The notes below the pieces were generated by a model that was not told the DNA's origin, did no database searches, and saw only the letters and a list, made by a program, of their open reading frames with translations. Position numbers and translations under genes: made by a program. Positions 10,754 to 38,159 of a stretch of 64,000 bases of DNA are shown in pieces (positions within the stretch are counted from its first letter, which is position 1; each line of letters starts with the position of its first letter). The stretch comes from Eledone cirrhosa (Eukaryota). Where the stretch lies: positions 307,830,001 to 307,894,000 of the forward strand of contig OZ024742.1 of the NCBI GenBank assembly GCA_964016885.1, in the 5' to 3' direction.

Positions 10754-11569
10754 TACTTCCTTATATGGGAAGATTGTAGTTGTCAAGAGGATTGGTTAAA
10801 ATTTGTTGTAAACACAAATAAGTCTATCATGGTATTGGGTGGGAGATAGGGGTGGCTGAACTTGCCTGTAGAACAATAGAGGAGTGAGTGGAGCGGTCAA
10901 GCGTTGAAAGTGATATGTATACAGCAGATGCTAAGGATAGTGTAAGTTGAGGAGGGAGGTGTATAGAATAAGTAAATCGAATGAGAGTAGGAGAAATAAA
11001 TAAAAAAATCGCAATGCTATCTTACAATTACAGGTTAATAAGTTGAGAATAGAAAAAAACTTGTAGAAATTGAGTAGTAACAAAACTAATACAAAATTAA
11101 AGGGGTTTAACACATCTGCTATAAGTAGTTAGTAAAACGTATTCGGCCAATTCTATCTTAATATTACAGGGGTGGGGGAACTGATGCTACAGAGGCCCGA
11201 TGGGCTGCATCGGGGTAGGAGAAATAGGAAAAGCAGACGAGGAAGAAAATAGGGTGTGATTTTTTTAATTAATTTCTCACTATCTAATTTTATATATTTT
11301 TTTTATTTCTTTCTATTATCTTTTACTGTCTCCTACTCTCATTCGATTTACTTATTCTATACACCTCCCTCCTCAACTTAGACTATCCTTAGAATCTTCT
11401 GTATACATATCACTTTCAATGCTTGACCGCTCCACTCACTCTTCTATTGTTCTACAGGCAAGTTCAGACACCCCAACCTCCCACCAAAATGCCATGATAG
11501 ATTTATTTGTGTTTACACAAATTTTAACCAATCCTCTTGATAACTAAATTCTTCCCATATAAGGAAGTA

Positions 11570-11664
11570 CCCCCTTGACAAGTTCGCCTATTTATTCACC
11601 AGGCTAAAAATTCTAATTTAGTCCAGAATTAGCCGTCGAAACGGCTTGAGCTCAGCCGTCGGGG
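11570..11664 (+). ncRNA. Type I hammerhead ribozyme, U3-A8 core variant
   Basis: cccc-TTGACAA-g(ttcgcctatt..ttagccgt)c-GAAA-cggct(tgagctc)agccg-TC-gggg. Stems I, II and III pair, with a GUC cleavage triplet. Confidence 0.7.
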
Positions 11665-11776
11665 CCCTACTTGTTCCTATTACCCACTCTACTACCCTAA
11701 GTATTGAGTACTCTGGTGCGTTATGGTCCATCTGGTTCCTTACCACATTTTCTTCGTTATATATATATATATATAT

Positions 11777-12001
11777 AAGTGGTAACACAACAGTTAGTTC
11801 ACCATACTGAGAACAATTGTTTTACCTTAGCGGATCTTCAGCTCGGACTGGTCGTGGTTATATCGTATAACTGCGACTTCCGAGCTGAAGATCCGCTAAG
11901 GTCAAACAATTGTTCTCGGTATGGTGAACTAACTGTTACCACTTCCACCTAACTCGTCCCATGGACTGAGTGCTCTACCACTACGGATATTACTTTCCAG
12001 T

Positions 12002-12006
<5 letters not shown>
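11777..12006 (+). mobile_element. Short Penelope-like fold-back pLTR (family P2) with minimal hammerhead and tail
   Basis: 11777-11849 is inverted at 11879-11944. Motif ccgag-CTGAAGA-tccgctaaggt-(C)AAA-caattg-tt-ctcgg. Same family as 28009-29390. Confidence 0.8.
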
Positions 12007-12046
<40 letters not shown>

Positions 12047-12057
12047 TATATATATAT

Positions 12058-12402
12058 TTGGGGTGGGTAAGCGATGTCTTCTCTTGTGAAAATGGGCATA
12101 GCTTTCATAATGTAAAACCTCCTCGGTGGATTGGCAGTATCGGTAGAGGGTCGGACGCCATGCTTTCCAGCATAGTTACGTCCCTTTACGATCTGAGTTC
12201 AAATCCCGCCGAGGTTGACTTTGCCTTTCATCCTTACGGGGTCGATAAAATAAAGTACCAGTAATGCACTGGTACTTGCTGGCCTTGTGCCTAAAGTAGA
12301 AACAATTATGTAAAACCTCCTCACTTGCCTCATTTCTCCCCGTTTTGGGACACATATTTTCATGGTACTCCCCGTCTGGGTTTTTAGAGGTTGGCAGGTC
12401 TG
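12058..12402. mobile_element. Partial hAT-type MITE (second family) interrupted by a SINE
   Basis: Homologous to 15376-15567. Right TIR gttggcaggtctg ends at 12402. Confidence 0.7.
12125..12307 (+). mobile_element. tRNA-derived SINE with 15-bp TSD
   Basis: TSD atgtaaaacctcctc at 12110-12124 and 12308-12322. Confidence 0.9.
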
Positions 12403-12989
12403 CAAATACATAAAAGCGTTATATAAGAGGATGAGTCTAGCATCTGTTTTATGAGATTATGAAAGAGAAGCAAGTTTCAGTTGACGATTTGTTGGTTTGC
12501 TTCTATTTCTGAACTGATCTACTTCGAGAAATTGTTACAGCAAGTGTTTGAGCCCCATAGAACAATTAGTAATTATACACTAACTTGTTTGATTATTTCA
12601 GCTCGGTGAGTTCACGTGGTATCTTATTGCGGTATTGACGTTTTTTTAGGGATGATATTGTGTGGTTATGATTTTGGCTCATATTTGCGTAGGTTTATCT
12701 GGTTTTCCCCGAGGTTGCATCTCTTGGGTATTACTATCACAAAACCCTCAGTTCTATCATGACACTCTAGCCCATGCAACGTGTGGCGGAATTCGAACTT
12801 AAAATGGACAGTGCTCGAACATTTACTGCAAGGTGTACCGTCCGACGCCTTAACAACACCACTAATTCACCGACATAGACTGGCAATCTCTTTTACTGAC
12901 ACGGATAAAGTGGAAGATAAAGTCGAACAGATCGGGTTTGGACTCGGAATGCAGAGAACCTAAACAAGTAATTAGATGCCATAAAGAAT

Positions 12990-13150
12990 TTAATAAAGCA
13001 GTAGATTGTTAGATTGTGGGGTAGACTGCTTTGTGGTATTAGTTCCCGCTTTCTTCTCTCTGAGTTCAAATCCCATCGAGGCCAACTTTGCATTTTATAC
13101 TTTCGAGATTGATATAAAAGGTACCAGTCTTGTACTGGGGTCAATTCTTC
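12990..13150 (+). mobile_element. Old diverged copy of the SINE family
   Basis: ctgagttcaaatcccatcgaggccaactttgcattttatactttcgagattgatataaaaggtaccagtc. Confidence 0.65.
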
Positions 13151-14181
13151 CTCTCTGTTTCACTTCGTCTCTCCACTCTCGATCTATTTTTTTTTTTAGA
13201 AAAAAATTTACTGTGTTCAGACCTGAAAAGTAGATGGTATGCGCCAGGCTTTCAATTACCAAGAAACGCCTTATGTCGTTACGGCGCCCCTATGATTCCA
13301 TCGAAAGTTATGTGTTAAAAACAAAGAAAAGGTATCTAATCCAACACTCTAACGACACTTCCACTTCCTCGTCTAACGTATGATTTACAATGCTATATTG
13401 CTTTATAACGAGCGAGCGGGGTTTAATAAAATGTAACTCTAATAATTACAGATAAATAGAAAAAAACTATACCATAAATGTCAGTTACGTGCCTTAGTGT
13501 TATCCATAAGATCTCAAACAATTTTGATAGGATAATTTAGCAATTCAGCTTAGAGATTTTTCACTATCAAGATTTTGCTTCAATTTTTAAATAACACTAT
13601 TTAAAGAAATGCTGTTCAAATTTAGACACTTTGAAATAAATATTTTTTTTAATGTTCTAAAATTAATAAATGAGACTGTAATCAAATTTTGACAGTTTTA
13701 ACGATACGCATTTCAAATGTTGTAAATGTAATAAATTAGATTAAAATCTGATTTATTGAATTTCTAACATTTAATACAAGTTTTAGCGAGCGAGAAATGT
13801 AGAAATAATTTACAAACGTAAGTTTCCAGTTCATCTTGATAGATATTAAGTATATAGATATAATTCTCTTTATTTTAAAACACAAAATTACAAACAATCA
13901 TACCGCATATTTCAGAAGTTTTCATTTTAAAATTTGTCAAATTTGTTAATATGTACAAAATGACACACATCCATCCACAAACATGTGGATTTCTAACCTG
14001 AGTACGACTGATTCGTGTCACTAATTAGAGCAATGGCACGGGCACAAAAAGTCACATGAGTCACATTTGGCATTGTTAAAGCAGAACGGAGTAAATTGAT
14101 GTACTTTTAAAAAGCAATTGACTTAAGAAGCATAAACAAAATTTGAAATATTTTTATGTGAGCTTCTCAACACAAATGTCC

Positions 14182-14560
14182 ATAATAATTGTTTCTATCA
14201 AATCGACCCCAATGTGTTACTATATTTTATCGACCCCGTAATGATGAAAGGCAAAGCTAACGTCGGTAGGATTTGAACTCAGAACATAAAGGGCCGTAAG
14301 TCTATGCCATCAGGCATAGTTACCAACATTCTACCAATTCTGCCAATCCACTGCCATATAGTGTTTGATTTAGGCGCAATACCAACAATTTTGTGGAGAG
14401 GGAAAAGTCGATTAAATCGACCCCAGTGCGTTACTGCTACTTTATTTTATAGACTCCGTAAGGATAAAATAAAGTACCAGTAACGCACTGAGGTTCATTT
14501 AATCAACTTTCCCCTCCCCGCAAAATTGTTGGCCTTGCGCCTTCATCAGAAACTATTATG
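14182..14560 (-). mobile_element. SINE (minus, 14182-14356) followed by a fold-back pair of SINE 3' halves (14360-14560)
   Basis: Core and tail matches. cagtgcgttactgctactttattttat is inverted as ataaaataaagtaccagtaacgcactg around 14455. Confidence 0.8.
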
Positions 14561-15375
14561 AACAGATGACTATAATGATAAAAGTCGATCCTTACAAATA
14601 ATAGTTGAGAAATCGGGTAAAATAAGAGAAGGGAAAAAATTGGCTAGAGGCCCCCACATTTTCCAACTCCAGATATACTTCATCTAATTTTCTGATCTAT
14701 TATTTAAAGTGATCAACTATTATTATAGTCATTTGTGTTGGGATGAACACATTTCAAATTTCATAGATCGTCTTATTTGCCTGCATTCATTGTCGTTTGT
14801 ATAGTGATCAATTCAAAACATTGTCTTGCTTGAATATTTATTGTTACACAAGGATTAGTGATCAATATCAGATGTTCGTCTATTCCTGCAGGCATTAGAG
14901 TGGGTTAATGTTTGCAATGTAGAGAACGACAAAATAAATAAAAGAAACGCTTAATCAAATAACATTTCATGTGTAATGAAAAAAAAAAGAACAAAAACTG
15001 AATTAATCATTATCGTTGATTTATTTTTTTACTGCTTGTCAAGGATGGAAGTGCGGTGGCTATGACACATTGTTGTACCTACGAGATAGTTAGGAGGGAA
15101 ATATCTTCAAACTTGTATTCTGATCCAAAAGCAATAGAATGAACTCCGGAAAAAGCACCCAACTATAAATGCTGGGGTTAAAATGGGCGGCATGATAATG
15201 ATAGCAATTTTTTAATATTATATTGCATTTATATTAAATTGCATTGGGCTCTTGTGATCAATCAACGAAATCCTTATATTAAATGTCCTAATCACTGATT
15301 GTTTTACATTGATACATTATTTTTCCGTGTATGCTAAGGTGTGTTATGTTCACGTAAGTCTATATATCACTGAAG

Positions 15376-15567
15376 CAGACCTGTCAACTCTTCCCGTCCT
15401 ATGGAGAGATCTCCCCTCCACTTTGGGTGGTTGAGAGATGTCTTCTCTTGTGAACATGGGTATAGCTTTCATTATCTGTAATCTTCCCATTTTGTCTGAT
15501 TTCTCCCCGTTTTGGGGCACTTCTTTTCATGATACTCCCCGTTTGGGCTTTTAGAAGTTGGAAGATC
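15376..15567. mobile_element. hAT-type MITE (second family)
   Basis: Left TIR cagacctgtcaac, degenerate right TIR gttggaagatc, 8-bp TSD (c/a)actgaag. Homologous to 12058-12402. Confidence 0.7.
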
Positions 15568-15784
15568 AACTGAAGGATGTCTAGGAAGAAAGTAATACGT
15601 TTGCAGTTTACATTGTATTTGGCAAAGATATGACTTACATCCCATTGCACGCATCCATTCAAATTTTATTCAATTTGATCATCAGTGTTATGCATCATGT
15701 CTTTTTTTTGTTTCACTGAATTGTGTATGAGCCATCCCCCGCTACGGGCCAATTAAATTTTAACAAAATAACGTAACTGAAATA

Positions 15785-15970
15785 TCGATTTCTTATTTTG
15801 GCATAAGTCCAATAATTTGAGGAGAAAGAAAAGTCGACTATATCAACCCAATTAGTTAACTGATACATTATTATATCAACCACAGATTTGAACTCAAGAC
15901 TTAGAAAGTCGTAAATATATACTGCAAAGTATTTTGTCCGACGCTCTACCGATACTGCCCATCCATCACC
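15785..15970 (-). mobile_element. Diverged SINE copy
   Basis: gatttgaactca...tccgacgctctaccgatactgcc head on the minus strand. Confidence 0.7.
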
Positions 15971-18487
15971 CCAACGGAATTGAAATATTGACAAACAAAG
16001 CAGGATTGTATTTGAACGTGGTTTATAAAGCGAGAAAAAGTTAGAGTATTAAACTTACCAAATTTCAATGTTTGGTTATAATACGGTTTTGTGCTTAACC
16101 TGAAACTTTACATTAACGAGCATCAGCATAGAGATTTGCATTTAAATGTTTCCATAAATATTTTGCGCTAAATGCTTATTCAACAGGAAGTTACTTTGAA
16201 TCATCTCAAGAAAAAACATAAAGGCGACCACTATATTCATAACTATATAATTATTCAATAGGTCTTATTGGTTATATGACTAGTCCTTTTGGTAGTTTGG
16301 TGATTTTAAACAATTAGTTAATGCATTGACAATCATAATCAATATATTTAAATGATCTTTCATTCTATGTGTGCACTCAGCCATACAATTTCATTAACTT
16401 AGCTAAAATTGACATTTATTGTCGTCACTCAAAATGTCCCGGACATTTAACAACACATAATTGACTTTTAAGATTCATCGACAGAATTAAAATAATTGTC
16501 ATTAAGTATATGATATACCTCTCCGTTGTGAGTAGTCCCTATGTGCAATTAATCATGAATAACATTAACTAAAAAATATTCCCATTTGACATAACCTGGA
16601 AAATTTCAATTGTAACATTTCGAAATGTGTATTCATATTTCAATTAAATATGTACATGTTGTTGGAAATAAAGTTGTATAATTACATTTTGTTTTGATAA
16701 TTCCACTTAAAAAAAATTAAGTGCTCATCTGAGTAGAATGTCAGAACAAAGAATAATCTGAATGATAAAATGAATATTCATTGTGATTTTAATTAATTTT
16801 CAGAACTCTCTTTAAATATTTAATAGGCGCTCCTCTTCTTCTGTGTTAACACGAAGATAATGAAATGTAATGTGTTAAATGTAAATTAAAAAGGTTAATA
16901 ATAAATGATTTCTTCCCATTTAGACGAAATCATCTGCCAAAATTGTTTGTAAACTATGTCTAATTTGATTTTAAACGTTGTGGGGAATTTTTTGTTTAAA
17001 ATGTTTATATTGCATTTATTTCCATGTATGAATTTATAAATGCCCATTTGTACATATATTCACGACAAACGAACAATAATTACAACTAATGACTGCATTC
17101 CTTTTGAAGAAGCAGAAACCCACAGAGAGAAGCGGTCGCGTTCTGTTTCAATTTTCAAAAAGATGACAATTCAAACTATAAACCAGTAAATTATACATTT
17201 GTATAAATTATACAGTTGTAGAGATATCCTCTTCTTCTGTAACAAGTTCATTCTCGTATACAGAAGGGATTCTTGTTAATGCCTGCGATTTAGTTATCTT
17301 CCGTACTTTTGATTTAACCGCCCGTTTTTTTGTTCTGGTGGAAGGGACGAGGTTGGCACAGGGAAATGTGTCGCTGCATATGATGCCGCGGGTGAGTGAC
17401 TTACTAAAAAATTAAAATAGTTTAGGGCGATTATTGTTACAGCGATCGAGGTAGACATGCTCCAATTATGACAGGAAACAGGCCACATTTTAGCTTCTCT
17501 ATAACGTCATTCAAAGAGGCTAAGTATTTATCTATCCCTTTGTAGTATTCTTGAGATTATCTAAGTAGAATTGAGTTACTTTCACGACCTGTGTGTTTAA
17601 TTATTATCAATAAAACTATATTCTTTTCTTTACAAAAGTATTAAGTATCCTTGGACTATTTTGAAATTAAGAAAGGTATTGGCAATTTTAAATATTCTAA
17701 ACTCACTTCATCAAATTCGTCATTCTCAGCCATGAATAATAAAATAGCTACATTTTGCTCGCGACGTAGACTAAGACTAAGATTGTATATTTGTTGAGAA
17801 GGCTAGCAAAGCAATTTGGTAATTCCTTTTCAATAGATACTTTTACTTTTAATAGATACTTTTACATACATGTAAGTCTTGAGACTTTAATTGATTCACT
17901 TATTCTTTTCCATATTTATCATGTAGACTAATACCGATGTTAGAAATATCCTAATCTGTGGTTAACGATTTATCGAACACGTAGTGGCGTTATGCATAAG
18001 AAGAAATCGGTCAGATTGTATAGTGTTTAACCCGATGTATTTAGTTACCCCCCCCCCCCCCCCACACACACACACACACAGAAACACATTCCTTCAATGG
18101 CTATTATATTTGGAGTCGATACGTCATGTAAAGTTAGAGGTCCCTGAGTTTGCAATAAACTTATTCCAATTCCTGTCCATCATTATATGAATTATTGACA
18201 TGCTATAGAAGTCTACGGCCATGTATATATTAACAAGAGATGTCTGTAACATTATCATAATGCTGATATTTTGGGTTACAGACGTGTAGACGTTGTGTGG
18301 GTGGATGTTTATTGTGGATGTAAGATAAATGTTATTCCATTTCTTGAAGTGTTCATAAGGTAATAGATTTTTTCTTTTGTTCTTAAACTCACGCCCTATT
18401 TGATCAATAGCTCACGTTATATAATTCAAATCAACCTATGGCGCTTTGTAGGAAAGGTGTGCTGAATATTCTGAACTATTTATATGT

Positions 18488-18814
18488 CTGTGTGTGAAAG
18501 AGTATGTGTGTGAATATCTTCCTGTGTATATCCCGACATATGAGTTACATGGAGAGAAGGGTTTATATATGAGTGATTGAGTGAAAGACATCATTATGTG
18601 TATAGCATGCACTGTATGGGAATAGAAAGAGAAAAGAGGAAACAGTGCTGTGTGAGAAAGAGTATGTGTATATGCATGTGGATGTCTTTCTGTGTACATT
18701 CCGACATATGAGTTACATGGTGAGAATGGTTTATATATGAGTGATAGAGTGAAAGACATCCTTTATGTGTTTGGCATGCGCTGTGTGCGAATAGAAGGAG
18801 AAAAGGAAACAGTG
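18488..18814. repeat. Two-copy tandem repeat, period ~160-168 bp
   Basis: ccgacatatgagttacatgg at 18533 and 18701. gaaacagtg ends both units. Confidence 0.85.
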
Positions 18815-19358
18815 TAATCATACAGATTACAACTGTTCAATATTAAATATGATTAAAAATGAGATAACAGAGATATGATTGCCAAATACAGATTTGTATC
18901 TTATTTTAGTATTTAATTAGATTAGCTTTCTTTTGTTTTTTTAGGATTTTCATTTTAGATAAACATGTTGATATATTAAACCTTAGGATTTTATGTACAT
19001 TTCTAAAAATTCTAATTATTTCTGAAGTCTTTCGGTGCATTTACTATCGCGTGAATTGACCGACTTGACCTCAAAACAACTTTCCAAAAATCAATTTATA
19101 TTTCTGTACGAGTTCACCCCAGAAAAATACAATAAACTCGGTTAATAAGAGAAACAAAGAGATAACCTAATATAAACACTAACAAATAAATGTAGTGAAC
19201 CAGAAACAGTATTTAGTATTATCACTTCTAGGTCTATCCAATGGTGAAATATTTACACAATCACTCGTTTTTCTACAAATGTATCACTCACTTCTGTCTC
19301 AAATCATTGCATTTGTCAGTGATAAAAACAAAATAAAACGATGAATACGTTAGATAAT

Positions 19359-19546
19359 TGTTTCTACTTTTAGCACAAGGCCAGCAATTTCCCAGTGTAT
19401 TACTGGTACTTTATTTTATCGACCCCGTAAGGATGAAAGGCAAAGTTAACCTCGGCGGGATTTGAACTCAGAATGGCAAGGGCCGTAACTCTATGCTGCA
19501 AAGCATGGCTTCCGACCCTCTACCGATACTGCCAATCCACCGCCCT
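19359..19546 (-). mobile_element. tRNA-derived SINE with 17-bp TSD
   Basis: TSD tgaatacgttagataat at 19342-19358 and 19547-19563. Confidence 0.92.
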
Positions 19547-20456
19547 TGAATACGTTAGATAATGTCGTGCTAGCTACACAATGGGTGAAAACAAACATGG
19601 TCTGGAATGTCTTTCATCATAAATCCGCTAGTTCAGGGATGAGCTGAGTTTGAACATGAATGGTATTTCACTAAGTGTCAGCTCTCGAAAAGAGTTTCAA
19701 TTAATTTATTGGTACATAAAATGGTGTGTTGCATATAGTACGAATTGAATGATATTCCAAGCTGCGTCTATACAGAACGGTAGACATATAAGGAGATAAA
19801 GCAGCAGCACCAATGGACTCTTAGCCTCGCCACCTGCATCAACTCTACTCCCACATACAGAAACACCATACCGTTTAACACTGAACGTTAAGAACTACAC
19901 CTATTGTTCTCTGACCTTGTCCATATTGATCATATCTACTGTGGCCAATATCAGAATATACAGTTGTACAGAAAGAGACTGCAGAATTAAGAACCTATAA
20001 CATCCCAATCTCAATTCAACACTGTATATTTGAGCTAGTTTCACAAATTACCCAAGTGCAATATATGGAATGGATCTCAGTCGGTTTTGGCGATGACTGT
20101 TCGAGTTGTTCGATCAAAGGAGCAGTCAGCTCTAAAAATTCCACACGTGAATTCTTAGCGATAAGCTTCCAAGTAGTTTCTGTCATCCCGCTTGACTGAC
20201 AAGGCTTGATTCGACCAGGGGTTATGGTAAATGGTGCTTGCTCAAATCGAAACCGAGAACTAATGATTATGAAGGGATCTTCTACACGATTAGGCCAATC
20301 TACGTTTACAATGTTTGGCATTGGCGTTTGTATCAACAATCATTAGCAATTGTATCACCACCATGCAGATATATTTCACTGATGACACACATTTATATTG
20401 AAATCGGTACTGCTATGCTCACGGACACGATGACTAAGAACAGGATTGCTATATAT

Positions 20457-20781
20457 CAGAGGTTCTCAAACTGTTTGGGCCACCTCACCCCCTCATGGCC
20501 ACGTAATACCCTCAGAGCCCCCCCCATTTTTTTCCAGAGAGACCTGTCTACGCGTAAATTGTAAATAATATATAATAAATAACATTGTTAATTTATATAT
20601 AATAAATAATATAATATATACAATGTATAAATAAATACTATTTTCTTATTTTACTATATCTATATATACTATGTATCAATTGATATTTAATATACTATTA
20701 TATCATCTCTACCGCCCCCATATTCCCCTGGACCTTCTCAATGCCCCCAGGGGGCAGAAGCGCCCACTTTGAGAACCTCTG
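20457..20781. mobile_element. hAT/Charlie-type MITE, 325 bp
   Basis: Perfect 14-bp TIR cagaggttctcaaa / tttgagaacctctg. 8-bp TSD ctatata(t/c). Confidence 0.9.
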
Positions 20782-21272
20782 CTATATACTATGAGAGCAA
20801 CAGTCATGAAAACAAGACAACTGTCTTCTAAGTGGCTGCTTCATAAATATATACATAGTAGTCATCTTGCCAATAAATCACACCTAGGCATAAAAACAAA
20901 AGTGACATTGAATTTTCTCAACTTAAGAGAAAGGGAAACGTGCTTCAGTGTGTGAAGGGGCTGCCTGTGTTCAATGGTTGTGTGAGTGAGGGGGGGGGAG
21001 GCGTATGTATCAGTGTTCACTTTGTGTGTATGCATGCCTAATGTATGCTCAATGTGTGTGTGTATATGCGTGTGCCCGTGTATGTGTGCTCAGATTGTGT
21101 ATCTGCGTGACCAACGTGTGTATGGTGTGCGTGTGTATGTTTATGCTCAATGTGTATGTTTGTGTGTGCGCATGTTAATGTGTATGTCTGTGTACCCAAT
21201 GTGTACTCAACTTGAGTGTGAGTGTGTGTGTGTGTGTACGCGCGTGTGTGTGTGTGTACTAATACTATTACA

Positions 21273-21459
21273 GTGGATTGGCAGTATCGGTAGAGGGTCT
21301 GATGCCATGCTTTGCAGCATAAGGTTATGCCCCTTTATGATCTGAGTTCAAATCCCGCTGAAGTTAACTTTGCCTTTTATCCTTACGGGGTCGATAAAAT
21401 AAAGTACCAGTAATGCACTGGGGTAATTGCTGGCCTTGTGCCAAAAGTAGAACAATTAT
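21273..21459 (+). mobile_element. tRNA-derived SINE
   Basis: Full match to the family. Confidence 0.9.
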
Positions 21460-21915
21460 TTCTAGATATCCCTAATAAGATGAGTCTTTGCTAGAGTAAC
21501 CAAATAGCTCTTATAGATCAAGGCGGACCAGGTGCTACACAACATCTCATCACTATATAATTACTGCATTCAATTCAATATTATTACTGTCTTCCTGGAT
21601 TTACCTCAAATACTAAGGCTAGCTCTTCAATCAAAACAACACAACCACTTACACTATAGCCCCTATCATGAATGAGAACACTTTAGAAACAACGAAAGCC
21701 ACAATTAAGAAGAATAGTATAGATATTTGAAATAGGAAATAAGAAATATGTACTGATGTAGTGCTCAGGAATCCAGTTGTTAAAGATTATGTTTAAAATT
21801 ATTGTGAAATATTCATGGTCAACTGCTTCGATATATATATATATTCTTAGTTGTTAAATCACAATAATTGAGTGTCTAACTTACTGTGGTTACCCCAGAT
21901 TGAACCCGGGATAAA

Positions 21916-21957
<42 letters not shown>

Positions 21958-21959
<2 letters not shown>

Positions 21960-22047
21960 ATGTTCTTCTTACCCACTCTACTGCCCTAAGTATTGAGTAC
22001 TCTGGTGCGTCATGGTCCATCTGGTTCCTTACCACACTTCCTTCGTT
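21958..22047 (+). mobile_element. Isolated Penelope P1 3' tail in (TA)n
   Basis: ttacccactctactgccctaagtattgagtactctggtgcg... matches 11680-11758. TA tracts on both sides. Confidence 0.8.
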
Positions 22048-22594
22048 ATATATATATATATATATATATATAGTTATACTTGGGGAGGGTCATATTTGCG
22101 TAATATTGCCAGAATTAATAACAGAACACACTCACTGTTTGGTTGGTTTTCGCTTCTCGCTGTCTTTTATATCTGCGATCTAACTTACTTGGTCCTCAAT
22201 GTTGCCATTGACTGACCGACGGTCAAAAATAATACAGATACAATATAGACACAAACACATATATATAGTTTACATAATTTACATAAATCTTTCGTTGCAC
22301 ATCTGCAACATCGTCAGTGGTGTTATATTTTTTCCTCCTGTTGTGTTGTATGTCTACGCCATTTTTTATTCAGTCTGTCTATATATTTATTTATTTATTT
22401 GCTTGTTTGTTTATTTTATTTTGTCTTCTTTGCGCATGCGTTTGCGTGTGTGTATAGTGTTGTGTGTGCTGTGTGACTAGTGTGTATAGTGTTGTGTCTG
22501 CTGGGTGACTAGTGTGTGTTTATGTGCTTGTTGTTATTGTGCTTGTGTATGTATTTATTTATCTTATTTTATTTTATTTTATTTATTTACTTAT

Positions 22595-24046: not shown

Positions 24047-24051
24047 TGAGG

Positions 24052-25719
24052 TTATGGTGGGGGTCTACCTCTTATAGGTCTACTAGGGCAGAAACATCTA
24101 AGGTCATGGCTGTCTAGGTAGTCAGTGTCGTAGGTAAGTCTAAGTAGGAGGCCCAGTTCGTCTGTGTCGACGTCGCAGAACTCCACCTCACTCTCAATGA
24201 TCACCTCCACACATCTTTTCACAGCAAAATCAATGTTAATGGATGGGTACAGTGACACCACATCCATGCTGCCTATTATGCAGTTGGATAGGCTCCTGTT
24301 TTTGTTGCACTCACTGATTCTGCTGAGGAGGTCCTCTGTACTTTCACATACATCTGGGGACATCTTGATTATGGGGCCTATAACCATTGAGAGGAAGTAG
24401 GAGATCCTGTAGTTGCTAGCTATATTAGCTCCGCATACGGGTCTTGTTGGTGGTCCTGTTGTCGGGTCGTTGACTGTCTTGTGGTCTTTGCGGAGCACAT
24501 ACAAGGGTGGTATGCCATTGTTAGACGCCTGGAAGTTGTTGGCAGTGCGTCTGCTTGGCTTTAGGATGTCAGTCCACATCATCATGTGAGCGTTGAGGAT
24601 TTTTTCTCTCCCATCGTGTGTTTGTTGTGCAACTTCGCTCGTGTTGGTGATGTGGGGTTGCATAGCCTCGATGTAGTTCGGCATGCTATCTATTGACATC
24701 CTACCAGACTTATCTGTGGGTAGACACACTACCTCACCATCCCTTGTGCGCTGCTTGAGGCTAACCAAGCCTTCTACAGGTTTTCTCCCAAGTTGTTGGG
24801 CCTCTGGTCTGCTCTGTCTCTTAGTATACCTGTCTACTACTTGTCTAATCTTATTTCTAGCTATGGTGAACTGTGCCTCCGTCTCGTCATCTATTTGCTG
24901 TGGTATGCAAACTCTTTTATTAAAGGGTAACCTCGTAGGATAGATATTACCCATCTTATATGTTTTGTCAGCTGGGTTGAAAAATAGTTTCTCCAAGGGG
25001 TTGTCATTATATCTATCGTCATAGTTGTGTGTGTTGCTATTGTTGTTGTTATTATCAGGGTGGTTGTTGTTGTTCCTATCATTAGCATTATTATTATTGT
25101 TATGATTGCTAGATGTATTGTTGTTTACTTCACCGTTATTGTTGTTGTTGTTACTGTTATTTCTACCATTGTGGTTGTTACTATTATTATGTTTCTTGTT
25201 TTTGTTGATGTTGCTACATGTACTATTTCCATTATTACCACTGTGGTTATTGTTGTTGTTGTTGTTCGTATTGTTACCGTTATTACTCCTGTGGTCACTG
25301 TTGCTGTGTCTGTGGTTAACGTTTCTATTATTATTATTATTATTGTGGTTGTTGTTGTTCCGTCTATCGCAAGTATTATTGCCATTATCACTATTTCTCA
25401 CTTTCCTGCTATTGTTATGGTTATGGCTGTTATTTCTATACCCAGAGTTATTGTTCATATTACTACTACCGTTATTATTGTTGTTGTTGTTTACCTTTGC
25501 ATTCCAACACTTTTCCAGCTCCGTTTTGCATTCCATAGGGTTAATCTTTTTGTAGATGGCACATTTTGGTGGTAACCGTAGGATTTGTTGTTCTTGTTCA
25601 CTGATTAAAGTGTTCCCATAGATATTTACTGTGTGGTCATTGGTAAATTCTTCCGGTAGTTTTACATCAGTCATACAGATACTGTCGATGTTATCTGGGT
25701 ATTTTTGAGATGACCACAC
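24052..25719 (-). pseudogene. Penelope ORF, N-terminal half (Asn-rich insert, RT motifs 1-A); frameshift near 24056
   Basis: PTDKSGR, YVLRKDHK, PTRPVCGA, GSMDVVSLYPSI. A one-base shift restores RPPTITSMAKK into the next ORF. Confidence 0.88.
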
Positions 25720-25739
25720 AGTAAATATCTATGGGAACA

Positions 25740-25783
25740 AACTTAAACTTTCTTTCTTTCTCAACCCCTCTCCCTTTTTTTCA

Positions 25784-25860
<77 letters not shown>

Positions 25861-26670
25861 GCTCTCACGCATACCCCTCGCTCTCGCTTAGAGAGAGTTG
25901 CAACATGTATGTAGTTTCATAGATTTTTGAGAATGAAAATATAAACAGAGCATATAAATAAATTTAACATAACAAATATGTTTTAAAAATATACATAAAT
26001 AACATTACAAATATACATAAATAACATTACAAATGCCTCGGTAACACTACAAAGGATGATACAATGAAAGATATATTCCTTCAATGCTTCAATATTAAAG
26101 AAAATGTAACGGAAGGGGTGAACAACGGAGCCAACACCAGAGCAAAAGACAGCAGTGTCGCGAGTACTGGGCAACCTTCTCTTATGATTTTTTAGGCAAG
26201 CCAGCACACTCGGGTGATGGCGAGGCTGATGCGCTGAAATATTGTTTTAAAAGACTTTTTAATGGAAATGAAGCAAAATGGAAGCTTAATGTTGAAACTT
26301 CGAACTCATGAATTTTTCAGGTATAAATTTTGCTGGCCCGAAAACTGTTCGCGTATTTTTGTACGTGTCGTTTGTTCCTAACGTAAATAGATTAGACAGA
26401 ATGACGCCATAAAAGGGAAATAACTCGTCTCTCATCTCTATTTATACATTTGAACTGAAAAATCAATACATTACAAATTCGATTTTTACACTTGGCGTGG
26501 GTCGATTTGAAACATTTTTTGACCGATGACTCCGCCGGAGCTTCATCTATAAGTGTAGCAATTTCACCGAAATTTGAACGTACGGTTTAAGAGGAGATCT
26601 GTGCCGAAGGTTTTAGTAGACAGACAGACAGACAGACAGACAGACAACCTCAGTTTTATATATATAGATA
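25740..26670 (-). mobile_element. Probable non-autonomous Helitron (5' end at about 26670)
   Basis: The minus strand begins a|TCTATATATATAAAACTGAGGTT followed by (GTCT)n, the typical TC start plus tetranucleotide-repeat layout of animal non-autonomous Helitrons. Internal (TC)n at 25788-25860. Confidence 0.55.
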
Positions 26671-27333
26671 TATATCCTGGCCTCTATTTCTATTTGTTCA
26701 TTTAAATATATCATATTCAAATATATCATATTTGCAACAACACAGCTCGCCATTTTTCATTCATATATGCTTTCTCCTTCGCTATAATCTATCTTTTTCT
26801 CTTCCCTCACTGCTATCCTTTTTCTCTCTCGCCCTTCTCTCTCCTTCTCCCTCTTACTTTCACTCACCCCCTCTGCTAGTCGCCCTCTCTCGGCTAGCCT
26901 CTTTCACACACTTTCACTCACTCACTCTCTGCTACTCACCCTCTCTATCACTCCATCGTCCCACACCATACGAAATTCTTTCCTCGCTCACTTTCGCACG
27001 GCTAAGATGTATCTTTGCCTTCTCGCCAATATTCGCAAGTTCTTATGTTCAAAATGAATCATTGACTTGACTTTCTCATTTTTTCCTCTCTTTATGTTGC
27101 CTCACTATTCGTGTTTGTTTACCTGTCTCTCTTTCTCCACCCAATTCTTTTTCTCTCAATAACTTATTTTAGTTATTGTATTGCCCTAGCCGGAGGTATA
27201 TGGTCTGTAATGCGAAGAAATGCCTATGATGGCTAGTAGACCACTGATAATGGATAGTACTGGCTTCTATTTCTAATTGTTCATTTTATTATATATATAT
27301 CATACTTGCAACAACACAGCTCGCCATTTTTCA

Positions 27334-27395
<62 letters not shown>

Positions 27396-27401
<6 letters not shown>

Positions 27402-27932
27402 TAAGATAACAAGGACGATTGGTTACTCCTTCATTACGTTTATTGGTTGGTGATGCACGTTTCCCCACTGATCAGCTCAAGGTTCGATCTGTATCGAACT
27501 GACGTGACTCTGTAATCCGCGGCTCGTCAGACCCCTTGTAGTATTAATGGAAGAATGAATACATGCTGTATCATAAACCCAGAAGTTCCAATGGTGGTCA
27601 TTAAAGTTTGTTTTGAGTGGTGGATTAGTTCATAGGGATGTGTTTTTCTGTAGCGTATGTGGGGGGTGGGTGTGGGGGTGGATAAAGGTTGGTGGTGTCG
27701 TTCGCAAGCTGAAGTGGGCGGTGGTGTGGGGGTCCTGGCTGTCGATAGACAGTTTGGGTTTGTAGATGTGGCTGATTTTTGTGTGTGGTGTGGGTGTGGT
27801 GTTATTGTTTGTGATAAAGATGAAAGGTTGCGGTGTTTATGGTGGTGTGATGATTGTGTTCGTGGTTTTATTTCCATAAGGAGATACATATATAGACACA
27901 CTAAGTCCGACATATACGTTGTATAGATACAC

Positions 27933-27934
<2 letters not shown>
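27396..27934 (-). mobile_element. Penelope-like pLTR/3' fragment with decayed hammerhead, between two (TA)n tracts
   Basis: Minus strand ggt-CTGACGA-g..long stem II..GAAA-cgtgc-atc-acc at 27449-27534, followed by AATAAA. Confidence 0.55.
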
Positions 27935-28011
<77 letters not shown>

Positions 28012-28039
28012 TGGTTACACAATAGTTAGGTCACCATGC

Positions 28040-28076
28040 CGAGAACAATTGTTTCACCTTACGGATCTTCAGCTCG
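28040..28076 (-). ncRNA. Minimal type I hammerhead ribozyme
   Basis: cgag-CTGAAGA-t-cc(gtaa)gg-t-GAAA-c(aatt)g-TT-ctcg. The palindromic stem III is typical of Penelope minimal hammerheads. Confidence 0.75.
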
Positions 28077-29251
28077 TAATGGATATGGTTATACGGAACT
28101 GGAGGGACAACCGTACGAACGCGCATGCGCAGAAACCGGTCACTTCACACAGGCAATACTAAAATGCGTACGAGAAGTATAAGGCATATAACTGCGAAAG
28201 TCCGAAAAGTGTTTAGTTGATAAGAAAATTATGAGGTTGTTGTAATGATTCAATCCGGAGATTTGTAGTTATACAAGAGGTGTTTCGAGACGTGTGGACA
28301 ACGTGTGAAGAATTCATTTCTCGTGTTTAGGCAATCACTCTTGCATAATCTCTTGAGAATATGTATTCGTTCATAAATACATAGTCCACACGACGGATTT
28401 CCCCTTGCGTATGGCTTGGACTTAGTGATGGCTTTCCATTGAATGGAGTAGTCTATACCTGAGTCCTTGAGGGACCATACGTGGCTCGCGAGTTTCGTGG
28501 ATGAACGTCTGTCCGGGTATCTAAAGGTCGACTGGTGGTTCAGGAAACGTTCCATAAATCGACCCTCCGCCATGCCCACATAAGATTTGATCTCCTGTGA
28601 TTCGTTTGGTCGGTTGGAAGTGACCAGGATGCCCTTGCCGTAAGCCCGAAGCTTGCCCCCTTCAACAGCAATGCAACACACCCGCTGTAATTTATGAAGC
28701 TGTGGACACTTCCAACAGACCAAACCAATCACAGGAGGTCAAATCTTATGTGGGCATGGCGGAGGGCCGATTTAAGGAACGTTTCCTGAACCACCAGTTA
28801 ACCTTTAGATACCCGGACAGACGTTCATCCACGAAACTCGCGAGCCACGTATGGTCCCTCAAGGACTCAGGTATAGACTACTCCATTCAATGGAAAGCCA
28901 TCACTAAGTCCAAGCCATACGCAAGGAGAAATCCGTCGTGTGGACTATGTATTGATAAACGAATGAATATTCTAAAGAGATTATGCAAGAGTGATTGCCT
29001 AAACACGACAAATGAATTCTTCAAACGTTGTCCACACGTCTCGAAACACCCCTTGTATAACTACAAATCTCCGGATTGAATCATTACAACAACATCATCT
29101 TTTTTTTTATCAACTAACAACTTTTCGGACTTTCGCAGTTATATCCGTTACACCTCTCGCACGCATTTTAGTATTGCCTGTGTGAAATGACCGGTTTCTG
29201 CGCATGCGCGTTCGTACAGTTGTCCTTCCAGTTCCGTATAACCATGTCCAT

Positions 29252-29294
29252 TACGAGCTGAAGATTCGCTAAGGTGAAACAATTGTTCTCCGTA
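29252..29294 (+). ncRNA. Minimal type I hammerhead ribozyme (second arm)
   Basis: gag-CTGAAGA-ttcgctaaggt-GAAA-caattg-tt-ctc. Confidence 0.65.
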
Positions 29295-29411
29295 TGATGA
29301 ACTAACTGTTGTTTAACCACCTGTACCTAACTCATCCCATGGACTGAGTGCTCTACCACTACGGATATTACCTTCCAGTGTTCTACCACTATATATATAT
29401 ATATATATATA

Positions 29412-30737
29412 GGAAGAGTGAGTGGGGATGGCGTTTATACAAATACACTTACACACAGACGCGTTGTTTAAGGAGGGATTATATGTGTTGGTTATGTTGA
29501 TGGTTGTGTAAGTATGGCGATGTGTCTGGGGGTGGTGGGGGTGGTTGCGACATGATATTTGCAGGGTCGAATTTTACGATGAATTACAGGTTAAAAAGTG
29601 ACATAGGGAACACTGGATACTGGACTGAGGGATGGTGGACGTATGGCGATGTGTTTGTGGTGGTGGGGGTGATTTGTTCGACATCATATTTACAGGATCG
29701 GATTTTACGATGCGTTACAAGCTAATACCTGACAGAGAAAACACATAGAACACAATGGTATTGAGATGAGGGGTGTATGGCGATGTGTTTAGTGGTGGTG
29801 GTGGTGGTGGGGGGGGGGGAAGGCTTAAATGGTGCGACATGATATTTACAAGATCTGATCTTACCATGGGTTACATGTTATAGAAGACAAATTTATTGAG
29901 ATGAGGGTGTAGCAAAGCAAAGGTGGTTATCCCTATGTCGGGTCAGGGTTAGTGATTGGCCGTTGGCTGAATGTTTGAGCAGAGAAGGTGGTCATTCTGG
30001 TGTATCTGCAGTTTATAATTATGGCAGAGCTGGAGTTTATGGCCGAATTCAATTTAATGATCTCAGCCGCTTCAGCCAGGCATAATCTGCAGTGGTTTTT
30101 GTCGTTGGAGAGTTGGGCCACACGTCTTTTAAATGACCACTTGATCTGGTATTCCATGTTCTTATCTTTGAGGTTCCAGATCAAGTCCGCCAGTCTTGTT
30201 TGGGATCGTTTGGGCCTGTGTTTGAAGGAGTTTTTGTGGTTATACCAGCGTTCCTTAAACGTCATCGATGTCGCCCCTGTGTAGAAGTAATCTTTTTGGC
30301 CCGCTTTGACATCGCACGGGTAAAGAAAGTTTTTAACGAGGCACTCCCCGTTTAGTGGGTATTCTACCCACTTTTTTCAGTTGCAGTTGGGGGTTATTGG
30401 TTTGTTGCCACGTTGTCGGTTGTTCATATTCTGTGTGGAGCTGGCATGCAGGGTGTTGCGTTGTGTTGTGTGTTGCTTCGTTCCGGGTTGTGCTAGTGGT
30501 TGGTTGGGGTGCTATCATGTGTTTGCGTATATTTGTCCTATTTGCGTGTGCTATCGTGTCGTCTAGATTTGGTGTTGTGGAGAAGGAGAATTTGACAGTG
30601 TATCTATTAAGTAGCTTGTGGTATTTATGTGTGGGTGGGAAGGATTGTTCAAGAGCTCTGAAGAAGGTTCCCGGTATATTGGTGGCAACGTGTATAGAGT
30701 ACTGGGCGTTGTACCTTGTCACAGGTCTGCTTCGGGC

Positions 30738-30740
<3 letters not shown>
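29412..30740 (-). mobile_element. Penelope-like fragment (thumb/linker, GIY-YIG, 3' UTR), different family
   Basis: 30333-30740 gives YNAQYSIHVATNIPGTFFRALEQSFPPTHKYHKLLNRYTVKFSFS. 29933-30290 gives YTGATSMTFKERWYNHKNSF..CRLCLAEA. Bounded by (TA)n. Confidence 0.85.
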
Positions 30741-30802
<62 letters not shown>

Positions 30803-30804
<2 letters not shown>

Positions 30805-31004
30805 GGAAAAAGTATGACCCCGACGGCAGAGCTCAAGCCGTTTTGACGGCTATTTCTGGACTAGAAATAGCCGTCGAAACGACTTGAGCTCTGCCGTCGG
30901 GGTCATACTTTTTCCTATTTCCCACTCTACTACCCTACTACCCTAAGTATTGAGTACTCTGGTGCGTTATGGTCCATCTGGATCCTTACCACAATTCCTT
31001 TGTT
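30803..31004 (+). mobile_element. Mini fold-back Penelope P1 element: ~115-bp palindrome plus tail
   Basis: aggaaaaagtatgaccccgacggcagagctcaag... is inverted. It holds only the 3' half of the hammerhead. Confidence 0.85.
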
Positions 31005-32239
31005 TTATATATATATATATTAGCTGACGAAGCTTTCCGATATATACATATATATATTGTAAAATATAGTTAGTTAATTTCCAGCACTATTGTATGCTGA
31101 ATAGAGCACTCAACGAAGTATAAGATTGCATACTCCGAAGTATAATTATAATAATGAGGACAAATCAACAGGTTAGAATTGTAGTTTTACGAAGAGAGGG
31201 CAAAGAACGAGTAGTAACTATTCAGCTCTCGAGAAAAATGAAGCCGTGTGTAAGCAGCCTAAGATACAAAAAGTGGGGGAAGAAATATAAGCAGATTCAA
31301 AAGGATGTGAAAAATTAAGAGATGGAAAGAGAGAAAGAAAGAGGTAAAGAAGTAGAGAAAGAAGAAAGGAGAGAAATCGCAGGAGGCATACTGTCTACGA
31401 TAGGTGTTACGTAGCTAAGACCATATCGAATAGGAATCCAGAAAAGCCGACAAAAGCTCCCTGTTGAATTGATAACTTGATTTATATGTTATTGTAGTGA
31501 TTTCCGATTGTGGTTAATTAAGCCAAGTTTGAGACATCAGCTCCTACAGGCGAATGTTTTAATAATATAGTATGCCAAGTCGAAATAATCCTTTGTACTC
31601 ACCCACCAACAGATTAAATGTTACGTACGGCACATTTCACATTCATATACGTGTTCTTGATCTTGTTTAGCCCAAAATCAGGCATGGCGAACAAGCCATT
31701 ACCGTTTTATCTATATATTTCTTTTTAATTCCAGCATAGAGTATCTTCAATTACTTTATGCGACCGTCTACTTTTATAGACAATAAATTTTTATTTAAGG
31801 GGTTTATGGTTTCTACTTCTAGCCGCTTGATACACCACGAAGAGGTTCATATAGTTTTCATTCAATCTTCACTCGAAGGTTAGTTTTTATTGATCAATGC
31901 TATGAACGTGCTCTATTCGTTTCCGTGCCGAAGTTTTGTATATGTAAGATAAAGTTAAATGTGACCAATGGGATGTAATTTGAGGGGAGTTGACTTTTTT
32001 CTAGGAAGAAGAACGAACGCACTAAGACGCCCTCTCGTGCGAAATATTGTTTTCTGAAACTGTTTAAGTTCAGAGATTTGTAGCTGTGTGTTAGATGTTT
32101 TATTACCGTTTAATATAAAATAAAGGTTTTCCAGCACGGAACACACACACACCTGCCACCCACAAAACAAATATTGTACCAAGCCGCGGTAACAGAACGC
32201 ACCAGCAGCAGTAACAGCAGCAGAAACAACAGTATCATC

Positions 32240-32426
32240 ATGTGTAGTAGTAGTAGTAGTATTAGTAGTAGTAGTAGTAGTAGTCACAGCGACGATAATG
32301 ATGTTGATGAAAAACAGTTAAGGTGATGATGATGATAACACTGATGGTGTTGATGATGATGAGAATGGTGGTGGCGGTGATGATGATGGCGATGATAACG
32401 ATGATGATGAAGAAGATGATGATGAT

Positions 32427-32473
<47 letters not shown>

Positions 32474-32605
32474 GGTGGAGGGGAGGGGAGGAAGAAGATG
32501 GAGGCGGAGGGGGAGAAGAAGAAGAAGAAGAAGAAGAAGAAGAAGAAGAAGAAGAAGAAGAAGAAGAAGAAGAAGAGGATCATGATGATGATGATAATGA
32601 TGATG
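32240..32605. repeat. Compound trinucleotide repeat (TAG)n/(GAT)n/(GCT)n/(GAA)n
   Basis: Directly visible. Confidence 0.95.
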
Positions 32606-32958
32606 TCGATTATATTGACGACAAGTTTATTTCCCTGGAGATTTGATTTACTTAAACCTGTTTACGTTACACTTTAGACATCAAAACATTTCATGGCGCC
32701 TGTTTAACTGTCAGGTATTAATAAGTATTGTTAAACCAGGAATCATGGAAGGGAATTTACAATCATTTCAATCAATAATTTACTCTTTTTTTTTTCTTTA
32801 CTGAAGATCTTCCAAATGTAAGTTTCAAATTATACGTTCATAACCTAAAGCAGGACATTATTATCAGAGGTTTCATATAATTTAAAAACAAAGGAGGTTC
32901 AGAACAGGAAATAAGTGGCTTCAATCACTTCTATAATATATATATATATATACAGTAT

Positions 32959-33152
32959 ATAGGAAAAGGTTTACCCCGACGGCAGAGCTCAAGCCGTTTC
33001 GATGGCTATTTCTGGTCCAGAAATAGCCGTCGAAACGGCTTGAGCTCTGCCGTCGGGGTTAAACTTTTTCCTATTACCCACTCTACTACCCTAAATATTG
33101 AGTACTCTGGTGCGTTATGGTCTATCTGGTTCCATACCACACCTCATTCGTT
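32959..33152 (+). mobile_element. Second mini fold-back Penelope P1 element
   Basis: Same palindrome and tail as 30803-31004, flanked by TA. Confidence 0.85.
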
Positions 33153-33186
33153 ATATATATATACATACATATATAAGTAAATTTAT

Positions 33187-33230
<44 letters not shown>

Positions 33231-34025
33231 CATAACCATGGTATAAATCATCATTCATATTTATAATTTGCTAGGAATTTGTTTCGAATAAATTCATACA
33301 AACAAACATTTGAATAGAAAAGAAAAGATAACACTGAGCTTAGTGATTGGCTCTCAATATAAAGGCATAAGAATAATCTCGTGTTTTCTGTGTATAGAGG
33401 AATTATTGTGTTTAGACTTTCCAATTCATTCTCTTCACATCTAAGGCTTCTAATTAAAAATATACTTTAAGTTTGCCATAAATCATCTAATACACTCAGT
33501 TCTAGTATAAATGGGTATTATCTATTTAAGAACGTCAATAAATGTATGGACGTAATCCATCTTACACTGACATACTCTATATGTCATATATAGCGTTGCT
33601 ATAGTAATATTCCACTGGAAACGGAATCATAGGGGTAGTTATTCTCTGATGAGAGTGGCATTTGAAATGCAGACGTAAGTAAGGTTTCTTATGGTTATTT
33701 TGTACACGGAAGGATAGACCAAAGTGCTAAAATCTCATTCTTTTAAAACCGAGGGCTGGCAATTAAAACCAAAATGTCAATTCATTAAAGATGTTTATAT
33801 TTTTGTTTAATTTACAAGATGAATCCTATTTTCTGACAAAATTTCAAAGACTGGAAGTGTATATTATAGCAGACCGCGAAAAAAGGCCATAATCATCAAA
33901 TGCAACTTGTACCTAGTTGAAGTACCTAGCTGGGGCAATACATACAGAATAGATAGTCTGTTATGGTCATTCCTACAGTCACACTGAAATAACGAACATA
34001 ACGCGATAGTAAAATGAAGCGGTTG

Positions 34026-34110
<85 letters not shown>

Positions 34111-34287
34111 CATATATATATATATGATAACAAGGCATCGTTTAAGGTAATCCAGTTAAAGGTTGTGAGTAATCTGTACTGTGGATAGTTTTAACGTACA
34201 GCGTTGTTTGACTCAACAAGAAGTTTTCTTAGTTAGGTGACGAGTTTACAAGAATGCCTATGCAGATGATTCTATATATATGTATGC

Positions 34288-34322
<35 letters not shown>

Positions 34323-35318
34323 TGTGCGCGCGCGTGTGCGTATGTGTGTGTATGTATGTGTGTGTAAATATATATATAAATTTATATCAAATAAAAAGAT
34401 AACTTATTTATTTTATATGAAAAATGGTAGATGAACGCAATATAAGGTTCCTTTTATTATGTATGGAATATTTTAATCTTTCTCCTCTTGTAAATTAATA
34501 TTTTCGTATCACTCTATGTACTTTAATAAGTAGAGTTTTCTCGAAATCACGAGATATAATTAATCTCCTGCGTAACCAAGGCAACGATGAACATATTGCG
34601 AACAGACAGCTGTTTTAGATTCAAGAGCCAACGTAAAATATCCTTCCTTACTTTCAGAACACTTCAGTTGAAGAGTTATCTCAGATTATAACTTCAGATT
34701 TATTAAAATTCGTAATTTACTATATATAGTGTAATTATACATTTTGTTGATATATAGCCGTTATAAAACAATCCAGATGTATTTAAAGCAACATATGATA
34801 ACTCCAGAAGTATTTTCATATGATCTAAGTATTGTATTGTGTATTTTATGTTAGCATGAAAAACCTTTTACACAATTAGTATCATTCAGTTAAAAGAGGA
34901 ATATTTTACGAAAAGAGGATCAGGGTTTGCGCAGACAGGCAGACAGGCAGACAGGCAGACAGGCAGACCTGTATATTTTCATAATCATAGACATACATAG
35001 AATTATACATACACTCATGAATATATATGATTCTCTGATAAACAAGACTCACTATTTAGCGTTAAGAATTAAATATCAAAACTCTACTTAGGTATTGAGT
35101 ATTCTTATCTCTCAATCGGCAGCCACCTGGTCTGAGAATCGAAATATATATAAAGGATATAAATATTTCTTATAAGACTGTCTGTAACTAGCTGGTGAAA
35201 GTCAAGTGTTCAGCCATCGGGACGTGACTCTCTATAATATAACCACACTCTACCTCCTGAAGTATCGAGTACTCTGTTGAGGAATAATCTAACCAGTTTC
35301 AAACTGATTCCAAACCTG

Positions 35319-36443: not shown

Positions 36444-36467
36444 ATATTTGTTTGACACACGATGTTT

Positions 36468-37885: not shown

Positions 37886-38159
37886 AAATTCAACTGATTT
37901 TTACCCACCTTGACATTGATTTCTATACTATCGTACTAACTTTTCTACATAAATTTGCACCATTTTGTTGACATCCTAAAGGCTTTAGGGGAGTGCTCTA
38001 GCAGAGTCCACATACCCTGGCGTATGTAAGGCACTTGACAAAGTTGTTTACGGCATTCTAGCATGAGAATCGGTGGGAGCTTTTATATAGGAGTAAGGAA
38101 CTTCTGCTGAACGCATATTGTGGTCAAAAGCATGCACTTATCTCAGCAAATGTCATTAG

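Follow-up and report, generated by a model that had tools for sequence, protein, structure and literature searches.

Hairpins and Penelope-like remnants in the window

The stretch analysed here (the window), 64,000 nucleotides of the Eledone cirrhosa genome (GenBank assembly GCA_964016885.1, contig OZ024742.1, positions 307,830,001 to 307,894,000, forward strand), appears rich in microsatellites, in the manner of an animal and more precisely a cephalopod genome, and contains remnants of Penelope-like elements (PLEs) whose tails carry a short recurrent hairpin, here named the box. The original prediction listed nine such hairpins and regarded them as a conserved RNA element common to unrelated PLE families. 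A regular expression recovered all nine at exactly these coordinates. In this study, we found that the box is a covarying feature of a single PLE clade, Hydra, that it occurs twice in the leader of complete elements and that insertion ends lie just upstream of either copy.

The nine sites represent five families. P1 contributes four copies on the forward strand, namely, at 11686..11714, at 21975..22003 (a stub), at 30924..30960 (with an 8-nt duplication in the loop) and at 33080..33108 (with one mismatch), which score 32.1 (E = 1.3e-6), 28.4, 27.6 and 26.2 bits, respectively, with R1, a model of the box built without window sequence. The two forward-strand copies of P2, at 11952..11976 (a variant with a 1-nt bulge) and 29330..29354, were identified by regular expression and are missed by R1. 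The other three families are orphan stubs. The hairpin at 35081..35105 (+, 19.5 bits, E = 0.006) belongs to a stub ending in (TA)n, and the one at 35247..35275 (+, 24.2 bits) possibly to a diverged relative of P1, to which it aligns weakly (71.5% over 123 nt including TA runs). The third, at 31103..31141 (-), has a long inner stem and is missed by R1 on its sense strand. Furthermore, a tenth, degenerate box absent from the original prediction was read by eye at 37971..37999 (+), with one broken outer pair, a 6-bp inner stem and a 1-nt bulge.

For the P2 copy at 29330 the predicted site holds, but the predicted stem does not: the copy reads ACTC-ATCC, a single-copy change. The window has an A at position 29334, whereas about 97% of public reads and contigs have a G, which restores the pair. 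The hairpins were correctly placed outside the fold-back arms, which stop short of them by 5 nt (P1) and 7 nt (P2), and the distance from RCTCT to the following repeat, given as 30 to 45 nt, measures 27 to 50 nt. A fixed descriptor searched in the window only gave eight matches (seven of the nine sites plus one elsewhere) versus a shuffle mean of 2.3 and maximum of 5 in 30 shuffles. The excess in the window alone is modest and no more than suggestive, and the strong evidence comes from loci outside it. Two further features were seen around the boxes: a second hairpin lies 3' of the box in four of the seven box-bearing window folds, and the word AGTGYTCTACCAC is present twice in the 29330 copy, once at the box (29345-29360) and once at the long end (29375-29389).

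P2 is 5' truncated and retains a fragment of a GIY-YIG endonuclease (28624..29079, +) with the motifs of the Hydra clade: a CxCX5C linker before the GIY-YIG domain, CxxC and CxH around the conserved E and N, and no CCHH. As is usual in this clade, it is inserted into (TA)n. A minimal type I hammerhead-like motif follows at 29253..29292 (+), with a U.U at the base of helix II and an NUU site as in published Hydra hammerheads; its core is of the File S2 type and scores weakly (E = 0.39 and 1.2) with a model of 28 such hammerheads. The P1 hammerhead-like motif (11568..11666, +), recognized by eye, has a U3/A8 core, an atypical but known variant, and long helices II and III and differs from the minimal form of other Hydra loci. 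The cores lie about 42 nt (P2) and 25 nt (P1) upstream of the box. A strict hammerhead scan of the window missed both, and the hammerhead model did not recover P1. Profile searches revealed no endonuclease match adjoining P1, 35081, 35247 or 31141, all of which are truncated stubs linked to PLEs by their box match and (TA)n ends; three of the five window families (35081, 35247 and 31141) are without protein evidence of PLE membership.

Profile searches identified two further Hydra-type remnants of the reverse transcriptase (RT) and endonuclease. P5 (37083..37880, +) is decayed and lies upstream of the tenth box, which is also preceded, near 37910, by a TTGACA word like that of P1. P4 (29933..30740, -) shares the Hydra motifs of P2 (linker, CxxC and CxH), with the linker decayed. 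It seems to be split (27395-27935 and 29412-30740, -) by the P2 fold-back, which sits in a TA run of the P4 3' untranslated region (UTR). A hammerhead-like core at about 27530 is followed by an apparent short end at 27395, where no box was found. The best match to the hammerhead model in the window (35384-35456, -, E = 0.025) similarly ends about 35 nt later in (TA)n, like a short end and with no box.

Clade distribution and covariation of the box

Word-based protein searches with the P2 endonuclease found nothing; a full HMMER search returned 4,411 relatives (E <= 0.001). We examined 87 outside loci, comprising 7 from genome contigs and the best 80 of 155 confirmed metagenome stretches. The locus search used an alignment of 16 of 150 listed proteins, so the set is biased to canonical Hydra endonucleases. 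A hammerhead core lies 3' of the endonuclease in 60 of the 87 loci, with at least 120 nt beyond the core in 48, and 17 of these 48 have the strict motif. The hairpin reads GCTC-stem-NN-GAGC-ACT on the sense strand, 40 to 81 nt after the hammerhead, and most families have GAGCACU rather than GAGURCUC, whose self-complementarity would permit a dimer. The strict motif matched 18 times in 10,130 nt of sense tail and once antisense (shuffled sequence, 0.02 per kb), and in open reading frames (ORFs) 0 times in 59,875 nt sense and twice antisense. The box is thus strand specific, enriched in sense tails over shuffled sequence and absent from sense ORFs. Its outer pair is G-C in all 18 outside matches and A-U in the window. 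In a short endonuclease tree, P2 and P5, which both have the A-U pair, form one group (97/88) that excludes P4, so this pair may represent one inherited change.

The motif is a feature of Hydra-clade PLEs, and describing its carriers as unrelated overstated their diversity. The non-Hydra element P3 (22595..25728, -; Neptune/Nematis-like linker by eye) served as a negative control: its 28-nt tail has no box, and no significant match to the box model was found in it. No P3 relatives were present in genome contigs (0/85), so that the control for other clades rests on P3 and the Naiad and Chlamys sequences of Craig 2021 (PMC8557442; cited here, like the other papers given by PMC number, from the available part of the text). 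Among the six new Hydra consensuses of that study, read by eye, the box is clear in three (the tails of Hydra-2_Amil and Hydra-2_Ajap and, in two copies, the 5' end of Hydra-1_Ajap), loose in two and unrecognised in one. Three box 8-mers occur at 16 places in the supplement, five in the Hydra file and one in a 5'-end hairpin of Chlamys-9; the remaining places have no hairpin context by eye, and line breaks may hide matches. Window-type 10-mers are absent from it.

P3 itself shows two further features. Directly after its short end, the 28-nt tail (36448-36475 and 36830-36858, -) forms a small TGT-TT(C)G-ACA hairpin, a possible clade-specific analogue of the box. At 24988-25575, its ORF is interrupted by a long stretch rich in Asn, similar to the N-rich inserts that have been drawn for Penelope elements of rotifers.

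To avoid circularity, rows for the covariation analysis were selected on the outer anchors only. The search gave 54 matches versus a shuffle mean of 2.4. Two antisense re-reads were dropped and the rest collapsed by eye to 32 rows, i.e., 30 family/box rows and two likely chance rows. By this selection the outer four pairs are invariant. At inner positions 6 to 8, 57 cells of the 30 rows form Watson-Crick pairs versus a permutation mean of 24.9 and maximum of 42 (20,000 permutations that ignore relatedness); with all 32 rows the count is 58 versus 26.9 (maximum, 45). The excess is confined to the register with a 2-nt bulge; with bulges of 0, 1 or 3 nt, pairing does not exceed chance. Changes on both sides of a pair were found in 32 cells, versus 10.3 after shuffling. 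In a MAFFT alignment 96.6% of the cells pair, versus 20 to 56% for slid structures. Inner pairing was seen in 13 of 14 Hydra matches and in 6 of 119 chance anchor matches from prokaryotes. The endonucleases of these families have a median identity of 47% (range, 28 to 74%), and the predicted covariation across distant families is thereby borne out. With R1, which was made from these 30 rows, the top six matches in the window are all among the nine sites (E = 1.3e-6 to 0.006), and the next match has E = 1.8.

The same data bear on two simple explanations, namely, that the motif is a functionless leftover of common descent or that it serves as partner strand for the ACTC/GAGT helix III of the hammerhead. 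All proven carriers belong to one clade, and helix III of the consensus hammerhead likewise reads ACTC-N-GAGT. However, flanks and inner stems are unalignable between families, and anchors and pairing are nevertheless kept at 47% protein identity. Helix III arms show six sequences in 14 families, whereas the box arm stays GAGC (the anchor used for selection) and lacks the U needed at the cleavage site. We consider both explanations very improbable. A direct role of the box as hammerhead helix III or cleavage strand was rejected: we found no GAA directly before the 5' arm, no U-H site and no covariation of the arm with the ribozyme.

Comparison with Rfam gave 66 window matches (E <= 5), none of which is a specific family match over the box and all of which fall below the gathering score; eight outside loci gave one match, also below that score and not specific to the box. 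The box was therefore rejected as a member of an Rfam family. In prokaryote genomes, the pattern of a single box gave nothing but chance matches. No description of the motif was found in the literature searched, which excluded Repbase reports and subscription journals, and the duplicated, clade-wide hairpin is apparently undescribed.

Box pairs and insertion ends

Closer examination of eight families with a complete leader revealed two boxes, the second of which (box 2) the original prediction had missed. In the leader, the hammerhead is separated from box 1 by about 50 nt, box 1 from box 2 by about 38 nt and box 2 from the start codon by 18 to 46 nt, the last distance holding in seven of the eight families. 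The boxes are spaced 61 to 67 nt apart in seven families; in the eighth, which contains an internal TA run, the spacing is 83 nt. The two boxes differ at pair 5, which is usually U-A in box 1 and C-G in box 2 (8/8), and in the bulge, usually UU in the former and mostly UC in the latter. A search for two boxes that used no protein query gave 12 loci. One of them (L217) proved to be another PLE, in which a hammerhead and an RT ORF accompany the two boxes; the other 11 were without PLE match. In four of these bacterial loci (L207, L208, L213 and L215) the matches share a repeat ending in TTGAGCAC with spacer-like gaps and thus resemble CRISPR arrays. In viral contigs, none of 27 candidates had a Hydra endonuclease, and no two-box pattern was found. 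Several contigs filed as bacterial genomes (L001-L007 and L217) carry animal-type Penelope elements and are probably host contamination.

Box 1 follows in 26 of 80 hammerhead cores. For 17 box-less cores the point at which the insertion ends could be mapped on a boxed relative, and 15 of these 17 distinct short ends lie between -6 and +3 of box 1, seven of them at -5. Ungapped mapping placed most short ends at -2 to -8 and a few at -13 or -14. Of the two among the 17 that fall outside the cluster, one is a fold-back within an element and the other a long copy whose box is mutated. The window families P1 and P2 end at -5 and -7, respectively. In the two families with a known box 2, the long ends map +57 to +65 from box 1, which places them 2 nt (F12) and 2 to 10 nt (F6) before box 2. 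Because short ends adjoin box 1 and long ends box 2, the tail is the box spacing. With insertion ends as a proxy for the cDNA start, the distance from box to end is fixed.

Public sequencing runs (four runs, at most three samples) also revealed two ends for the P2 family, at about 29323 (1,074 reads in one run) and at 29386-7 (33 to 46 contigs per row). These delimit a tail at 29324..29387 (+), and their separation of about 64 nt matches the box spacing of 61 to 67 nt. No continuation into box 2 was seen among the P2 loose ends shown. TAT or ATA occurs within 12 nt upstream of the box in 27 of the 30 rows and downstream in 11; the P2 ends are without homology of this type. In one outside locus (L055; 1200-1225 and 3630-3660), there is a unit-length copy whose start lies 8 nt before box 1 and whose end lies 4 to 6 nt before the same point, with a 9- to 13-nt repeat resembling a target duplication and seven extra bases at the 5' join. 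This single example is what one round of copying on circular or tandem RNA would give.

Given its place in the leader, the box could also be a promoter or translation element, e.g., for cap-independent initiation after hammerhead cleavage or for autoregulation, with the ends adjacent for some other reason. The position of box 2 shortly before the start codon is consistent with this, and the 34-bp tail repeat of D. virilis was once proposed as a basal promoter. However, that repeat is not required for normal transcription, and ends at about -5 of both boxes are left unexplained. As a full account this is improbable; such a role can coexist with the RT-loading function proposed below.

Proposed role of the boxes and comparison with known systems

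We propose, with a probability of roughly 0.6, that the RT-endonuclease loads onto the RNA at either box and is thereby positioned to begin copying a few bases upstream of it. Both boxes would be carried 3' of the pseudo-long terminal repeat on a read-through or tandem RNA. Protein loaded at box 1 would start cDNA synthesis just before this box and produce a tail-less end, whereas protein at box 2 would copy box 1 and the spacer and produce a tailed end. The choice of box would thus determine a short or tailed end, which would explain the optional tail of Hydra-group Penelope elements. Since the box in use would not be copied, a lone truncated copy would be unable to supply it. The start point often has the sequence UAU(A), which may pair with the nicked (TA)n target. 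Binding of the protein to the box as RNA and a cDNA start about 5 nt upstream are what we infer from the position of the ends. The proposal fits Poseidon (PMC11167929): in purified form, the Poseidon protein initiates internally at two sites, one on each side of the tail, and requires RNA as far as +172, past the start site at +111-118.

Several observations weigh against this proposal. Box 2 was seen for no window family, its stems are often weak, and the evidence on long ends comes from two families and one published consensus read by eye. Only 17 of the 54 box-less cores could be mapped on a boxed relative (of the others, 29 were without such a relative, 7 were located at contig ends and one was a duplicate), the 15 ends in the cluster stem from six families, with one of them being a contig end, and one junction (L048) seems to lie 2 to 3 nt inside box 1. 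R1 misses three of the nine window sites (both P2 sites and 31141), the fold of P1 itself gives the outer pairs a probability of only 0.4 to 0.7, and by eye the published consensus of Hydra-1_Obim shows no recognisable box and that of Hydra-1_Amil a weak one. Sense-strand counts of G.U and A.C pairs inside helices are 3 and 1, respectively, so that RNA and single-stranded DNA are not separated by these counts. Finally, the biochemical precedent, Poseidon, is from another clade.

The boxes might instead act on DNA, as recognition marks for the GIY-YIG endonuclease, which would cut TA-rich sequence just upstream while an intermediate is resolved or the element inserts into its own leader, and thus generate the same two ends. 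In line with this, the tail was ascribed to endonuclease-mediated resolution (Craig 2021, PMC8557442), and earlier work on D. virilis, according to Frangieh 2024 (PMC11167929), found it necessary for endonuclease recognition. The frequent TAT or ATA within 12 nt upstream (27/30 rows) and a (TA)n run just before box 2 in one locus (L008) would also suit such a cut. On the other hand, a bulged stem that covaries while its inner sequence is free would be difficult to recognise in duplex DNA, the cDNA of a short end would not contain the box, and the tail ends of Poseidon match RT start sites in vitro (PMC11167929). We therefore regard action on DNA as unlikely. Even less probable is that a host nuclease or a small ribozyme of unknown type, directed by the boxes, cuts the RNA or forms its 3' end a few bases upstream, with the RT starting at ordinary 3' ends. 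This predicts the same end positions, and RNA-seq read ends coincide with the Poseidon start sites; however, purified Poseidon protein starts internally on uncut RNA (PMC11167929), and the box, only about 25 to 35 nt long, matches no Rfam family.

If the boxes are indeed RT-loading sites, they bear on the open questions of how PLEs choose their RNA, start internally and come to have an optional tail, for which the in vitro Poseidon study located the start sites, not the signal (PMC11167929). A 30-nt covarying box, with two copies placed just behind two ends, allows an exact mutational test. In addition, the box is a practical marker for the ends of Hydra-clade elements in genome annotation.

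The Hydra-clade PLEs described previously share the endonuclease motifs, the (TA)n targeting and, as judged by its core, the hammerhead type of the elements studied here, and their Hydra section and tables do not mention a box (Craig 2021, PMC8557442). Endonuclease-positive PLEs have an optional tail of 30 to 40 bp and two internal RT start sites (PMC11167929, PMC8557442, PMC3846280). They have in common with the boxed elements two discrete 3' ends, a one-sided tail and an upstream hammerhead, and need RNA downstream of the start site, as is proposed for the boxed elements; the available parts of these papers name no conserved sequence-structure motif or duplicated box. In Poseidon, an "AC-rich stem loop" contains the start (PMC11167929); the Hydra tail measures about 60 to 80 nt here.

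Outside the PLEs, stem-loops in the 3' UTRs of R2Bm and zebrafish LINE-2 bind their own RT and fix the position of the template, R2 using two of them (PMC11194090). A conserved secondary structure, as in such RT-binding, template-positioning stem-loops of R2, LINE-2 or telomerase, is present in the box, and by analogy the box probably works like them. The R2Bm and LINE-2 loops are part of the 3' UTR that is copied and precede a terminal start (PMC11194090), whereas the boxes repeat a single motif, follow an internal start on its 3' side and would remain uncopied when used. Telomerase, an RT of the sister clade, has a template boundary element, i.e., a short helix adjacent to the template, with a conserved base and bound by the RT, that bounds copying (PMC4993307). 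That element lies 5' of the template and stops synthesis (PMC4993307), whereas the boxes lie 3' of the start. The box may also shed light on how an internal, structure-defined template arose in the sister clade of telomerase. Tentatively, as a conjecture that we would put just short of an even bet, PLE RTs in general may choose and register their template in a telomerase-like manner via a repeated, uncopied RNA box 3' of the start, with the tail equal to the distance between the boxes. Other clades would then have box pairs of their own, and the 30-nt box could be grafted onto any RNA to set where a Hydra RT-endonuclease starts (TA)n insertion.

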